Below are positions 15,611-52,598 of a DNA stretch of 64,000 nt, one piece after another. The notes beneath the pieces were generated by a model. The model was not told the origin of the DNA and did no database searches. It was given only the letters and a program-made list of their open reading frames with translations. The DNA is taken from positions 6,107-70,106 of the forward strand of contig CAZNRH010000002.1 of assembly GCA_964575755.1 (NCBI GenBank). The letters are read 5' to 3'. Positions within the stretch are counted from its first letter, which is position 1. The number at the start of each line of letters is the position of its first letter. A program made the position numbers and the translations under genes. This DNA is from an uncultured Candidatus Saccharibacteria bacterium. Lineage in GTDB: Bacteria; Patescibacteriota; Minisyncoccia; Phycocordibacterales; JABMNX01.

Positions 15611-16288
15611 ATGCCAGATTCACACGATATTCATTTGCCAATAGAGTGGAAAAATCTTTTACATGAAGAGTTTAATAAGATATATTTCAAAAGTCTCGCA
15701 CTTAAAGTACGAAGTGAATACACTTCTCAAATAATTTTTCCACCACCAAAACAAATCTTTCGAGCGTTTGAATTATGTTCCCTTGAAGACCTTCGCGTTG
15801 TAATTTTAGGACAAGATCCATACCATACACCTGGAGTTGCTGATGGGCTTGCATTTTCAACGACTTCCCAAAAGAAAATACCACCATCTCTTCAAAATAT
15901 ATTTAAAGAATTAGAGTTAGAATATGGAGAAATTAATATAGACCCAGATCTTACAAGGTGGGCTCAACAAGGGGTCTTACTACTAAACGCTTCTCTTTCA
16001 GTGCGTAGTGGTGAAGCTAACTCACATGCCAGCCATGGTTGGCATACGTTCACTGACGCTGTAATATCAACTATTTCAAAACATAACACACATATAGTAT
16101 TTATGTTGTGGGGGGCTTTCGCTCAAAAAAAATCAGAGCTTATAGATGAAACCAAGCATCTTATTCTTACATCAGTACACCCTTCCCCGCTCTCAGCTCA
16201 TCGAGGGTTCTTTGGTAACAATCACTTTAAAAAAGCTAACGAGTACTTGAATGAAAATAGGCGCAAAGAAATAGACTGGTGCTCCTAA
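15611..16288 (+). CDS. ung: Uracil-DNA glycosylase family 1
   Basis: Water-activating GQDPYH motif, LLLN, HPSPLS loop. Confidence 0.9.
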   Translation: MPDSHDIHLPIEWKNLLHEEFNKIYFKSLALKVRSEYTSQIIFPPPKQIFRAFELCSLEDLRVVILGQDPYHTPGVADGLAFSTTSQKKIPPSLQNIFKELELEYGEINIDPDLTRWAQQGVLLLNASLSVRSGEANSHASHGWHTFTDAVISTISKHNTHIVFMLWGAFAQKKSELIDETKHLILTSVHPSPLSAHRGFFGNNHFKKANEYLNENRRKEIDWCS

Positions 16289-16530
16289 ATAACACCTTCT
16301 TTTTTTAACTTTTTATACTTTAATTGAGTACCTCTGTTGTATTCTCCAAGTGTGCCATCTGACTTTATTACTCTATGACATGGTACAGAGCTATCATGAT
16401 TTCCTTTCATAATACTACCAACTATGCGGTATGCATGTGGCGAACCCGCCTTTTCTGCCACTTCTTTATACGAAAGAGTCTTCCCTCTTGGTATGTTTTT
16501 CACTACTTCTAATACTTTTTCTTTAAACAT
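16285..16530 (-). CDS. ogt: Methylated-DNA--protein-cysteine methyltransferase, C-terminal DNA-binding/active-site domain only
   Basis: PCHRV active-site motif (SSVPCHRVIKSDGTLGEY) in an 81-aa protein. Confidence 0.8.
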   Translation of the reverse strand: MFKEKVLEVVKNIPRGKTLSYKEVAEKAGSPHAYRIVGSIMKGNHDSSVPCHRVIKSDGTLGEYNRGTQLKYKKLKKEGVI

Positions 16531-16536
16531 GAGTGA

Positions 16537-17376
16537 TTAAAATAATGTGTCTGTCTTAACTTCTTCTTTTGATTCTCCTACTTTTTCTTTTTTAAGCTTC
16601 TCAGGTTTCTTAATTTTAGACGCATGTATTGCTTGTAATTTTTTGCCAGAAACTTCTCTGTATGGGCAGTATTCACAGTCGTCTCCTACTTTAGGGATTG
16701 AGCCTGACTTTAAACACCCTTTAATGTTCTGTAAGACTGATTCGATCCAAGTATCTTTCCCTAGATATGGTAGTACTTTTATATCAAATTCTAGTTTATT
16801 ATCAAAAGCGCCAACGTCCGTCTTAGCGTTCACGTAGACAAAATACCCTGTGTCAGAGACCTTGAATCCATTTTGTCGAAAGAGCCACTGATATATTTCC
16901 ATTTGCCGCTTATATCCATCTTGCCAGTCTGCGTCTAAACTCACTTCACCATCTTTACTTGTTGCTTTGTAGTCGACAATAATAAGCTCTCCATTTGTAG
17001 TGACCCATATATCATCTATTGCGCCTGAAACAACAAGTCCTGTTTCTTTATGTAGACAATCGATACCTTCAAAGTTTTCCCGCCATTTGTCAATATCTTT
17101 ATGCTGATATGGCACAGCGTCAACACCAAACTCGGTCATTATTGGATGCGGAGTCTTGTTTGCGCGATGAATATCGAACTCTTTCTTTAAAAGTGTATCG
17201 ACAGCAATGTTGAGGTTGAGTGGGTATCCAGGAGGGCGTTTGGTCCCAAGCTTGTTGTCTAGGTAGAAACATCGAGGACACGACATGAATAATTCTATTT
17301 TAGAGCGAGAAAGGCGCCATTTTTTGCCACCATAATTCCATTCTGCTCTCCTGTTTGGATTGTAGTAACCTGCCAT
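16537..17376 (-). CDS. Cas4/RecB-like PD-(D/E)xK exonuclease with 4-Cys Fe-S cluster (DUF83-like), stand-alone
   Basis: N-terminal CPRC and C-terminal CEYCPY cysteines, motif II Asp (AIDDIW), motif III IVDYK, QxxxY motif (QMEIY). Confidence 0.65.
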   Translation of the reverse strand: MAGYYNPNRRAEWNYGGKKWRLSRSKIELFMSCPRCFYLDNKLGTKRPPGYPLNLNIAVDTLLKKEFDIHRANKTPHPIMTEFGVDAVPYQHKDIDKWRENFEGIDCLHKETGLVVSGAIDDIWVTTNGELIIVDYKATSKDGEVSLDADWQDGYKRQMEIYQWLFRQNGFKVSDTGYFVYVNAKTDVGAFDNKLEFDIKVLPYLGKDTWIESVLQNIKGCLKSGSIPKVGDDCEYCPYREVSGKKLQAIHASKIKKPEKLKKEKVGESKEEVKTDTLF

Positions 17377-39771: not shown

Positions 39772-41787
39772 CTAATTTTTACCTTCTAACGCCTGTATTT
39801 CATCACGTATAATAGCTGCCGTCTCGAAGTCGAGAATCTTTACAGCTTCTTCCATTTGACGGCGCTTTTCTTTAATAAGTTTCTTAGGATTCTTCTTATA
39901 TAGTTCCCTATCTACATCAAGCAACGTCACTACTGCTTTCTGATGTTCTGTGCGTAGCTGGTCTGTGATGTCTTTAATATTTTTCTTAATTGTCTTTGGT
40001 GTTATGTTGTACTTTTTATTGTGTGCAATCTGAATCTCACGCCTGCGATTAGTCTCAGAGATTGCTTTTTGCATTGAGCCAGTTATGTTGTCTGCATAAA
40101 GCACAGCGCGGCCCTCTACGTTTCTCGCAGCTCGTCCTATTGTTTGAATAAGTGAAGTCTCTGAACGAAGGAAACCTTCTTTATCTGCATCAAGAATCCC
40201 GACAAGCGTTACTTCAGGTAGGTCAAGCCCTTCTCGTAAAAGATTCACTCCAACAAGCACATCGAACTTACCTTTTCTAAAATCAGTTAAGATAATGATA
40301 CGATCTAGTGTCTTTATATCACTATGTAAATACTCTGCTTTTATATCTTTATCTTTTAGATACTCACTAAAGTCTTCTGCCATTTTCTTTGTAAGTGTTG
40401 TAACTAGTACACGCCCGCCTTTCTTAACTGTCTTGCCTGTTTCTGCTATAAAGTCTGCAACCTGTCCTTTGTATTTTCCGTCATTACTTTCAACAACTGG
40501 CCTTATCTCAATCTGAGGATCAATAAGTCCTGTTGGGCGAATAATTTGCTCTATTGGTTTATCGGTATGTTCAAACTCATACACGCCTGGAGTCGCTGAA
40601 GTGTATATAGACTCTCCTACTCGTTGCTCAAATTCCTTGAAATTAAGTGGGCGGTTATCTAGTGCTGATGGGAGTCGAAATCCATAATCTATTAACGTAC
40701 GTTTACGTGACTGGTCTCCAGCATACATACCACCTATCTGAGGAATAGTAACGTGAGACTCATCTATAATTGTCAAAAAATCAGGTGTTCCATCTTTTTT
40801 ATGTGGAAAATAAGAAAGAAGAGTATATGGTGGTTCTCCAACCTTTCTTCTATCAAAATGTAGTGAATAGTTTTCTATACCGTTGCAATAACCTATCTCA
40901 CGCATAAGAGCCATGTCTTGAGTGGTCCTGCGTCGTAAACGCTCTAACTCTAGTATATTCCCTTCTTTATCAAACTTCTTTAACTGTTCTTTAAGCTCGT
41001 CTTTTATATCTTCTATCGCTTCTTTGCGTTCATGTTCTGGAGTTACATAATGTTTTGCTGGAAACAAGAACATATCAATTTTCTTTTCAATAATTTGTCT
41101 GGAAATATAATCGAGTGTAATTACTTCTGTTACTGTGCCTGAAGAAAGTCCAATACGATAAATAATCCTTTCGCTTGTTGGCATTATTTCAATAAAGTTA
41201 CCTAGTGCACGAAACATACCTGGCTTCAAATCAGCATTTGTTCTTTCAAAATATATATCAATAAGTTTTCGTATAAAACCAGAGCGTGAAAGATTGTCCC
41301 CGACAGCAACTTTGAGATGCACTCCCTCATATCTCTCTGGGCTTCCTAAACCATAAATACATGAAACGGATGCGACTATTATCACATCACTTCGTGTTAA
41401 GAGTGCTTGTGTTGAGGCGTGCCTTAGCCTATCTATTTCTTCATTGATTTGTGCCTCTTTCTCAATATAAGTATCCGAAGTTGGCATGTATGCTTCTGGC
41501 TGGTAGTAGTCATAGTATGAGACAAAATAATGCACAGCATTGTTTGGAAAAAATTCTCTATATTCTTGTGCAAGTTGAGCTGCGAGTGTTTTATTGTGTG
41601 CAATCACAAGTGTTGGTTTCTGAATCTTTTCTATTACATTTGCTACGGTAAACGTTTTTCCTGACCCAGTCACACCTAAAAGAGTCTGGTGTCGCTTACC
41701 TGATTCAACTCCTTTTATAAGAGCTTTTATTGCTTTTGGTTGGTCTCCATCTGGCTTGAATCCAGATGAGATTTTAAATTTATTCAT
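39772..41787 (-). CDS. uvrB: Excinuclease ABC subunit B
   Basis: Helicase motif I GVTGSGKT, beta-hairpin region YYDYYQPEAY, C-terminal UVR domain (AAIIRDEIQAL); start moved to MNKFKISS at 41787. Confidence 0.9.
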   Translation of the reverse strand: MNKFKISSGFKPDGDQPKAIKALIKGVESGKRHQTLLGVTGSGKTFTVANVIEKIQKPTLVIAHNKTLAAQLAQEYREFFPNNAVHYFVSYYDYYQPEAYMPTSDTYIEKEAQINEEIDRLRHASTQALLTRSDVIIVASVSCIYGLGSPERYEGVHLKVAVGDNLSRSGFIRKLIDIYFERTNADLKPGMFRALGNFIEIMPTSERIIYRIGLSSGTVTEVITLDYISRQIIEKKIDMFLFPAKHYVTPEHERKEAIEDIKDELKEQLKKFDKEGNILELERLRRRTTQDMALMREIGYCNGIENYSLHFDRRKVGEPPYTLLSYFPHKKDGTPDFLTIIDESHVTIPQIGGMYAGDQSRKRTLIDYGFRLPSALDNRPLNFKEFEQRVGESIYTSATPGVYEFEHTDKPIEQIIRPTGLIDPQIEIRPVVESNDGKYKGQVADFIAETGKTVKKGGRVLVTTLTKKMAEDFSEYLKDKDIKAEYLHSDIKTLDRIIILTDFRKGKFDVLVGVNLLREGLDLPEVTLVGILDADKEGFLRSETSLIQTIGRAARNVEGRAVLYADNITGSMQKAISETNRRREIQIAHNKKYNITPKTIKKNIKDITDQLRTEHQKAVVTLLDVDRELYKKNPKKLIKEKRRQMEEAVKILDFETAAIIRDEIQALEGKN

Positions 41788-41950
41788 TGTTTGTAAACTA
41801 CATACTATTGCATCAATGGGGCATAGGCAAGAAAAAAAGCCGATTCCCGAAGGAACCGGCAAGTTTAACAGGGAGGCGATGACCTCAAAAAAGTGGAGGA
41901 AAGATCATCTACAGCCAAGAATACCATTTAATTATAAAAAAGCAATCATT

Positions 41951-43168
41951 TTACACTAAGTACTTATCAAGAAACTCGGCCTTAAACTCATAAAATTTAT
42001 CGTCAAGAATTGACTGTCTTAAGTCTTTAACTAAATTTACAATAAAATAAAGATTATGGATCGACGCGAGTGTTGCACCAAGCATTTCTTTAGAGCGAAA
42101 TAAATGTGCTAGATACGCCTTTTTATAATTCTTTGAGGTGTAACTAGGTGTATCATCGTCAATCGTTGAGAAGTCATTCCTATATTTACTATTTAAAATG
42201 TTTATAAGACCACTTTTTGTGTATAGCATCCCATTCCTTGCTATACGCGTTGGAGTAACACAATCAAATGTATCAATCCCCTTCTCTATACCGTCAAAAA
42301 TATTAAGTGGGTCTCCAATACCAAGAAGATGTCTAGGTTTTTCTTTAGGTAAGATACTATTCACTAACTTTAATGTGGCATCTAGATCTTTTTTAGTAAA
42401 CGAACCACCAATGCCGTACCCGTCAAAACTCATTTTCGCTAACGTCTCAGCACTCTCTCTACGCAAGTCTTCATGGCGACCACCTTGTATGACTCCATAC
42501 AACCCTTGCTTCCCGCTTGCTTCTATATTTCCCAAGTGAGCTTTTAAACTTCTGTCTGCCCAACGATGTGTTCTGTCCATAGCTTCTTTTTGATACTCAT
42601 AAGGAGCAGTCGGTGACGTACATTCATCAAATGCAAACATAATATCTGCACCTATATTGTGTTGTATCTCAATAGAACATTCTGCACTAAATCTGTGTGT
42701 ACTTCCATCTAAATGTGACGTAAACGTCACACCCTCTTCGTCAATACGTGCAAGTCGAGCTTACTCTAGACTAAAGTTCTTGTCGTATATTACTGGCGAT
42801 GTACTATCCTGAATATCATGAGCAAATTTACTTACATTACTATCATATGCATCTCCAAGTGAAAATACCTGAAACCCACCAGAGTCAGTTAGTGTTGGAC
42901 CTCCCCAATTCATAAACTTATTCAACCCACCAGACTCTTTAACTATATTTTCACCAGGTTCAAGATACAGATGATATGTATTTGCAAGCACTGCTTGAAC
43001 CCCAACGTAATCTCTCAACTGTTCTGGGGTAACAGACTTCACTGTGGCTTTAGTGCCAACCACAGTAAAAGCTGGAGTTTCTATCTTTCCATGAGGAGTA
43101 TCTATTACGCCAGCACGTCCAAGCTGTCCTTTGATTTGTTTTTCAATTTTAAATGAAATAGTCGACAT
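41951..43168 (-). pseudogene. tgt: Queuine tRNA-ribosyltransferase interrupted by an in-frame TAA (42761-42763)
   Basis: N-terminal piece 42761-43168 (RAGVIDTPHGKIETPAFTVVGT...LTDSGGFQVFSL) and C-terminal piece 41951-42730 (SHLDGS...GADIMFAFDEC...) are in the same frame; the 30 nt between them encode ARLARIDEEG, matching the conserved TGT region around the stop. Confidence 0.7.
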
Positions 43169-43903: not shown

Positions 43904-44086
43904 AGAAAATAAAATTACCTTAATAAATATATTTACTTAAGCGTAACATCATTTCTTCTTCAAAGAAACTTATGTATGTTGGTTATTGAGCACGAGACAA
44001 AGACTTGACAATGGCTATATTTTCGTGTTAAACTTGTGTTAGAAATATCGAATTACAAATTTGGTATAAAACAGTTTTTTAAAGGA

Positions 44087-44311
44087 GACGACCCTATGCG
44101 AACTTTTAAAAAAGTGGCGCTGGTCGCCACACTTCTTGTTCTCGGTGCATGTACTAGCATTGAGGTAATAGATAAAGACAACGGACACGTGTCTGTTGTA
44201 TACGAGAAACCAAGCCTTATCATAGGTATGATTCCAACGTTTACAAAACGTAGGATCACGTTTGACTTCGTATGCACACCAGTGTGCATACAAGAAAAAG
44301 CGAAGGAGTAG
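44087..44311 (+). CDS. Small lipoprotein
   Basis: RBS AAAGGAG 8 nt upstream; signal peptide with lipobox (LVLGAC); 74 aa. Confidence 0.45.
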   Translation, partial: DDPMRTFKKVALVATLLVLGACTSIEVIDKDNGHVSVVYEKPSLIIGMIPTFTKRRITFDFVCTPVCIQEKAKE

Positions 44312-44316
44312 GAAAA

Positions 44317-44754
44317 ATGAAAATCTTTTTTATCACCCTTCTCTCCCTTTTTCTTTATACCGCTGGTACTCTGAAAGCTGCAGCAGGATCTATAGACGTA
44401 ACCATGTCTCCGACAGGAGATGTTGTGACACTTCCCGACGGAAGTACACTCCAACCTTACGTTATTGATGATACACGATGGTTCGAGTTTTTCAAACTCG
44501 ATTCTATTGTCGGTCAGCAATGTTGGAGCGATGATAACTGTGTCTTACTGTCACCAAACGGTGTCGAAATTAAGATCGACTGGCAACAAGTTGCTGTAGT
44601 TGCAACAATTGTGATTATCCGAGTTGCGCAACCTAAGTGGCTTCCAAAATGGGCGACTGGGCGAAGTGCAAACTCTTCAAATCCCGTTGCTACTGCCGTA
44701 GGTGGTGGTGGTACTTGTCCCCCCGCTTGCGGAGCACCTGGAGCAGGAACCTGA
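44317..44754 (+). CDS. Secreted hypothetical protein with Gly/Pro/Cys-rich C-terminus
   Basis: RBS GAAGGAG; signal peptide MKIFFITLLSLFLYTAGTLKAAAG; C-terminal GGGGTCPPACGAPGAGT in a locally GC-rich segment. Confidence 0.45.
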   Translation: MKIFFITLLSLFLYTAGTLKAAAGSIDVTMSPTGDVVTLPDGSTLQPYVIDDTRWFEFFKLDSIVGQQCWSDDNCVLLSPNGVEIKIDWQQVAVVATIVIIRVAQPKWLPKWATGRSANSSNPVATAVGGGGTCPPACGAPGAGT

Positions 44755-44760
44755 ACTTAT

Positions 44761-44802
44761 ACCCCATGAAATGTAGGAACATTTCATGGGGTAAACTTTT
44801 TT
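44761..44802 (+). terminator. Rho-independent terminator (ACCCCATGAAAT...ATTTCATGGGGT plus T6)
   Basis: 12-bp perfect stem then AAACTTTTTT, right after the stop of the plus-strand secreted-protein gene. Confidence 0.55.
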
Positions 44803-44808
44803 ATATAA

Positions 44809-52220: not shown

Positions 52221-52598
52221 CTACTCAAACTCAAACAAGATTTCATTAAAATTCTTTATTTTGTTATTTTTCTCTATCTCGATTCCCTCTTTTTTATAAA
52301 GTTTCATTCGTTCTGTTTTATATTTATCATTAACCCAGATCCGTCCATCTGCATACACTATTCGATGAAATGGAACGTTAGGATTATTTTTTGATGCTTT
52401 TGATAGTATTCCTGTAATACTTTGTGAAGACATTGCTCCGCCTCCCGAAGCACGAGCTATCCTACCATACGTCGTCACATGTCCTTTTGGTATAGAAAGC
52501 GCAACACGTAGTACACGATCACTGAAAGTTATTTCTTTATGTTTTGATTTATGTATACTTTGCATTTTACATAAGCTTAACGCAGAAATATAAAACAA
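52221..52598 (-). CDS. Alkyltransferase-like (ATL) MGMT-fold protein lacking the active-site cysteine
   Basis: MGMT C-domain HTH (TYGRIARASGG) and motif NVPFHRIV where canonical PCHRV has Phe in place of Cys. Confidence 0.6.
   Translation of the reverse strand: MFYISALSLCKMQSIHKSKHKEITFSDRVLRVALSIPKGHVTTYGRIARASGGGAMSSQSITGILSKASKNNPNVPFHRIVYADGRIWVNDKYKTERMKLYKKEGIEIEKNNKIKNFNEILFEFE

Follow-up and report, generated by a model that had tools for sequence, protein, structure and literature searches.

The window, i.e. the whole stretch of 64,000 nucleotides analysed here, harbours on its minus strand a tgt reading frame that is broken once by an in-frame TAA. The parts of this frame and the signal next to it are located as follows:

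41951-43168, minus strand: complete tgt frame of 405 codons, followed by its natural TAA and interrupted once
42761-43168, minus strand: ORF of the N-terminal fragment, 135 aa, terminated by the premature TAA and holding D95
42761-42763, minus strand: premature TAA at codon 136, read as TTA on the plus strand
41951-42760, minus strand: rest of the frame on the C-terminal side (codons 137-405 and the natural stop), with D181, D302 and H371
41951-42730, minus strand: mechanical C-terminal ORF, 259 aa counted from the first GTG
42758-42853, minus strand: lineage-specific insertion of 32 residues relative to Zymomonas mobilis Tgt, codons 106-137
42134-42151, minus strand: position of the Tgt zinc motif, codons 340-345, with T340, S342 and S345
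42386-42409, minus strand: substrate-pocket segment, codons 254-261
41839-41860, minus strand: terminator-like hairpin with a T-run before uvrB, by consensus match only

Translation of positions 43168 to 41951 of the minus strand in a single frame gave 405 codons with codon 136 as the sole internal stop, around which the peptide reads ...KNFSLE-stop-ARLARIDEEGVTFTSHLDGS.... The original prediction, according to which two ORFs share one frame and are separated by this TAA alone, was thus right in its coordinates, frame and peptide. Another 269 codons lie between the premature TAA and the natural stop, and the first standard start after the interruption is a GTG at codon 147 (position 42730), 30 nt downstream.

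The two pieces cover adjoining stretches of the Pfam TGT profile, i.e. 3-106 and 92-355 of 357. Joined across the stop, they reached 450.4 bits with the NCBIfam equivalog TIGR00430, the cut-off of which is 306.75, and an E-value of 1.6e-131 with Pfam PF01702; taken singly, the fragments scored 125 and 308 bits. Since the joined pieces pass the equivalog cut-off, they are parts of a single interrupted gene rather than two ORFs paired by chance, and the claim that the conserved peptide runs straight across the TAA is borne out. Judged by these profile matches, the gene is the bacterial tgt, encoding tRNA guanosine-34 transglycosylase, the enzyme of queuosine insertion. Bacterial Tgt enzymes exchange the base G34 on the tRNAs for Asn, Asp, His and Tyr.

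The protein aligns with Z. mobilis Tgt (PDB 1ENU, 1P0D and 1OZM) over residues 16-404 (phmmer, E = 2e-89), whereby D102, D156, D280 and H349 of the Z. mobilis enzyme correspond to D95, D181, D302 and H371; the three aspartates are invariant among 20-45 homologues. Unlike the Z. mobilis enzyme, the window Tgt has a stop at codon 136 and an insertion of 32 residues after the position of Z. mobilis S112, where the phmmer alignment breaks (query 105/138 against chain 112/113). The full-length homology to solved Tgt structures and the AlphaFold model of a relative with 90 % identity, P0001 (mean pLDDT 86.5, pTM 0.85), in which strands and helices alternate, agree in indicating a (beta/alpha)8 barrel. 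Residues 101-137 are the sole low-confidence stretch of this model, with pLDDT below 50, and the insertion is predicted to be flexible or disordered. The stop therefore falls at the C-terminal edge of this lineage-specific insertion on the protein surface. Across Paceibacteria, the insertion varies in both length and sequence and reaches its maximum of about 70 residues in locus L062. Owing to the TAA at codon 136, the window copy lacks the continuous chain of about 370-430 aa that is typical of a bacterial Tgt.

Its nearest homologues are Tgt sequences of uncultivated Patescibacteria, i.e. from MAGs of the Paceibacteria/Parcubacteria type. The best relative, P0001 (404 aa; GCA_964625905.1, contig CAZVBS010000002.1, isolate SRP128015_co3_51), shares 90 % amino acid and 81 % nucleotide identity with the window tgt, as well as the gene order FKBP, 72-aa ORF, tgt, uvrB, uvrA, uvrC and ddl, the same insertion and the same zinc-less TPSYTS motif. 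In contrast to the window, it possesses CAA (Gln) at the codon of the TAA and encodes a single protein of 404 aa. The original prediction had proposed to compare this codon in close relatives, and it is CAA in all four of the closest relatives with DNA, i.e. L002, with 90 % amino acid identity to the window Tgt, and L085, L086 and L087, with 71-75 %. Gln occupies the position in all relatives of at least 70 % identity; below about 70 %, the position varies, with His being the commonest residue and a gap in three loci. Given the CAA in the four closest relatives, the TAA represents a single C-to-T transition on the coding strand (plus-strand position 42763, A in the window and G in the ancestor), and the disabling codon is thus only one step away from the sense codon of the orthologues, as in a nonsense pseudogene.

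None of 80 related genome loci carries an internal stop in tgt, and none of 119 full-length homologues is split or interrupted; apparent internal stops in the tgt genes of L022 and L065 turned out to be tblastn extensions past shorter natural gene ends. The surroundings of the gene are more variable. A Y1 transposase gene (PF01797; positions 1-494 of L086) lies directly upstream of tgt on the contig of P0004, and in both L086 and L087 a HAD hydrolase gene is found downstream of tgt in place of uvrB. With such different neighbours, the synteny around tgt is not fixed within the clade.

Compared with L002, tgt shows a dN/dS of 0.042 (0.055 before the stop and 0.036 after it), which falls within the range of eleven neighbouring genes (0.023-0.118). 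An alignment of 120 homologues revealed no private deviations of the window Tgt at columns that are otherwise invariant. Among the 142 columns conserved to at least 95 %, the window Tgt deviates at only one, and since P0001 deviates there too, this change predates the split of the two lineages. With these dN/dS values and without private changes in the conserved columns, the gene gives no sign of relaxed selection or further decay, meaning that the stop arose very recently or that tgt continues to be selected. Based on about 330 non-synonymous sites in the conserved columns and a synonymous divergence of the lineage of at least 0.8 per site, the period since the stop arose, if neutral, would roughly amount to less than about 1 % of the branch that leads back to the common ancestor with L002. 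On these alignments, the lack of other damage would fit continued selection on a functional gene as well as recency.

Of the alternatives raised by the original prediction, a recent nonsense mutation is favoured by the CAA in the four closest relatives and by a tgt gene that is free of decay elsewhere. We therefore consider it likely that the window tgt has undergone a very recent nonsense mutation from CAA (Gln136) to TAA, which is probably inactivating and makes the gene a nascent pseudogene. Translation would end at codon 136 and release a fragment of 135 residues, which would carry D95 as its only catalytic aspartate, the substrate-binding D181 and the nucleophile D302 being encoded downstream of the stop. 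With D95 apart from D181 and D302, neither piece should be active alone. Since the active site is divided and there is no credible downstream start, loss of Tgt function is the most likely outcome, and tRNAs with a GUN anticodon would then keep G34. We infer both this loss and its tolerance by the cell; both E. coli and V. cholerae survive the knock-out of tgt (PMC9508795, PMC11703503). A search of the literature for Patescibacteria in connection with queuosine and tgt yielded nothing relevant.

On this reading, the window tgt is an ordinary gene, newly broken, and not a case of unusual coding. Like young bacterial nonsense pseudogenes, the window tgt combines one disabling substitution in a non-essential gene with intact orthologues in relatives. 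It differs from them in possessing no second lesion and no raised dN/dS, which would place it at the earliest detectable stage.

Alternatively, near-cognate tRNA-Gln, tRNA-Tyr or tRNA-Lys might decode the TAA at a low rate, so that some Tgt is kept, which we regard as unlikely. In that case, some queuosine modification would be retained and tgt would remain under selection, with the insertion of Gln yielding the wild-type protein. The low dN/dS downstream of the stop and the unchanged conserved columns would agree with such leakiness, as would the location of the stop in a variable and probably disordered surface insertion tolerating many residues. In addition, the stop is followed by G, a +4 context (TAA-G) found in just 4 of 39 natural terminators here. 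V. cholerae without tgt shows higher UAA read-through (PMC11703503), and the missing Q34 could accordingly raise read-through of the premature stop and produce a weak feedback. However, recency explains the intact remainder equally well, the stop is conserved in no relative and therefore gives no hint of selection for read-through, and a read-through signal was not identified. Moreover, TAA is the commonest terminator of the window, and UAA is a substrate of both release factors.

It is very unlikely that an active TIM-barrel Tgt forms by non-covalent association of the 135-aa fragment with a C-terminal fragment that is initiated separately. The break does lie in a type of site at which split proteins can reassemble, i.e. 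a lineage-specific surface insertion with pLDDT below 50, and the GTG 30 nt past the stop is preceded by GAAGAGGG. Yet this purine-rich stretch consists of the codons for DEEG and is merely about 2 nt away from the GTG. A start at codon 147, which lies inside a predicted strand, would furthermore cost the protein its residues 137-146, among them those of a predicted strand (140-142) as well as D143, E144 and G146, which are conserved. Its leader is also atypical for the window, where the 25 nt before about 60 starts are AT-rich and nearly devoid of GGAGG-type Shine-Dalgarno sequences, with ATG in about 80 % of the starts; this composition suggests that translation initiation in the window is independent of Shine-Dalgarno pairing. 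Finally, a split tgt is found in no relative. In some archaea, the archaeosine tRNA-guanine transglycosylase is naturally split between the catalytic domain on one side and the C-terminal and PUA domains on the other, in a conserved way. The window tgt resembles these enzymes in that a member of the TGT family is in two pieces, but differs from them in that the break falls within the catalytic barrel, is unconserved and leaves the second piece without a proper start. Taking both routes into account, it appears quite improbable to us that the TAA allele is alive, be it by read-through, boosted by the lack of queuosine and resulting in a self-limiting low expression, or by reassembly of a split barrel.

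The nonsense mutation presupposes that the TAA is real in the DNA. An error in sequencing or assembly was among the earlier suggestions, and the difference of one base, seen in assemblies and not in reads, is of a type that such an error, or one of polishing, could make in a genome that truly carries CAA. The Logan contigs from two runs, one of 3237 bp from SRR6439370 and one of 8005 bp from SRR6439372, nevertheless show 100 % identity to the window over their 3.2 and 8.0 kb, including the TAA. Four contigs of NCBI and Logan assemblies, among them a third Logan contig of 10-20 kb, are recorded with exactly these products of 135 aa and 259 aa. The site is also outside homopolymers and repeats. 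In a collection of about 15 billion proteins, an exact look-up of otherwise identical intact alleles, in which codon 136 stands for Q, K, E, S, L or Y, yielded no match, and pattern scans of JGI metagenome contigs for an intact allele were equally negative. Since the same TAA recurs in separately sequenced and assembled runs, we give an artefact hardly any credence; at the assembly level, the lesion is real. The NCBI and Logan assemblies probably derive from one study, and their agreement therefore concerns independent runs and assemblers and not independent populations. Literature searches for SRP128015 and for the accessions of the runs returned no publication. In the sampled population, the TAA allele is fixed or at least dominant, while a minority intact tgt allele may be present.

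The stop codon usage of the window speaks against a change of the genetic code. Of about 60 genes called with confidence, 35-39 end in TAA, 20-21 in TAG and 1-2 in TGA. In L002, the relative with 90 % identity, the corresponding counts are 10, 5 and 1, and TGA accounts for 16 % of the stops in 79 other Paceibacteria loci pooled. The window was also scanned for same-frame, stop-free segments of at least 70 codons with one stop in between. Besides tgt, nine such pairs were found on coding strands, all of them separate genes that belong to different families or have their own ATG, including GH1 and EamA-like, S13 and S11, L13 and S9, MnmA and HAD hydrolase, CsoR-like and rhodanese protein, and thioredoxin and P-type ATPase. 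A candidate for a second interrupted gene, of the PD-(D/E)XK nuclease/MGMT-like kind at position 16537, was rejected because the gene of 81 aa begins with a separate ATG, two codons past the TAA. The original prediction that no other gene of the window carries an in-frame stop, and that a genome-wide alternative code is unlikely, therefore held. Two small genes with the MGMT DNA_binding_1 domain only, i.e. 16285-16530 (minus strand, 81 aa) and 52221-52598 (minus strand, 125 aa), may both encode alkyltransferase-like proteins.

The only tRNA of the window is tRNA-Ala(UGC), which is also its one Rfam match; no Rfam element was found near tgt. In known UAR reassignments, e.g. in ciliate-type codes, UAA encodes Gln. 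Reassignment of TAA (e.g. to Gln), be it genome-wide, via a tRNA or by a dedicated ochre-suppressor tRNA, would thus match the ancestral residue at codon 136, but can practically be dismissed, considering that TAA is the commonest terminator and occurs in frame in no other gene of the window, that the sole tRNA is the one for Ala, and that CAA to TAA is the simplest mutation possible. The stop is, moreover, unconserved in relatives and in-frame stops do not recur in the window, whereas programmed read-through or reassignment would be expected to show one or the other.

Regarding the expression of the neighbouring genes, the hairpin follows the tgt stop at a distance of about 90 nt and precedes uvrB. 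This suggests that tgt is the last gene of its transcription unit, so that a polar effect of the premature stop on uvrB is not to be expected. A scan for promoters detected sites no more frequently than in shuffled sequence. The mechanical uvrB ORF with a TTG start at 41862 (41787-41862, minus strand) overlaps the hairpin; the true uvrB gene probably begins about 25 codons further on, with the ATG of MNKFKISSG..., which is where the gene calls of the Logan contig L083 place it (671 aa). On the other side of tgt, the region of about 900 bp between the FKBP and ROK genes (43904-44808) contains only overlapping ORFs of low confidence on both strands, i.e. 44053-44520 on the minus and 44272-44754 and 44036-44311 on the plus strand. 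The gene calls of L083 in this gap are of 145 aa and 91 aa, on the opposite strand and without a Pfam match.

Apart from the stop, the window Tgt deviates from the Z. mobilis enzyme in two functional segments. The three zinc-binding cysteines have long been regarded as conserved in the TGT family. The Z. mobilis residues C318, C320 and C323 correspond to T340, S342 and S345 of the window Tgt (TPSYTS), i.e. all three Cys of the structural zinc site are replaced, while the His ligand, H371, is kept. Cys is entirely missing from this segment in 23 of the 119 closest homologues and is reduced to one or two residues in another three. Therefore, the loss of the zinc site is a conserved trait of a sub-clade and not decay of the window copy. 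The zinc-less segment is also found in P0001, P0012, P0017, P0031 and P0053 and in about 20 of the loci L003-L082. Other Cys-free motifs in Paceibacteria include PLSDGYVAQ and PETIIPGTE, in proteins that are intact and conserved. From these alignments, zinc-less Tgt sub-clades appear to exist in Paceibacteria.

The second segment concerns the substrate pocket. The Z. mobilis segment GGLAVGE (G229-E235) corresponds to GGSFTKK in the window Tgt, starting at G254-G255. The canonical preQ1 pocket is thus replaced by GGSFTKKD, with GGSF-x-K-E/K-D as the consensus of the clade. The equivalent of E235 is Lys in the window Tgt and a few relatives. A changed base specificity resulting from the remodelled pocket is possible.

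For the annotation of the locus, our data imply that tgt should be recorded as a pseudogene or an interrupted gene and not as two Tgt proteins, and metabolic reconstructions should assume that the strain is queuosine-free. With the nonsense mutation as the preferred reading, the window tgt would offer a clear view of a gene being lost, caught at the very first stage, in a Patescibacteria lineage with reduced genomes. The relevance of the split gene is small outside annotation. The more interesting lead is the clade of zinc-less, pocket-remodelled Tgt enzymes under strong purifying selection.
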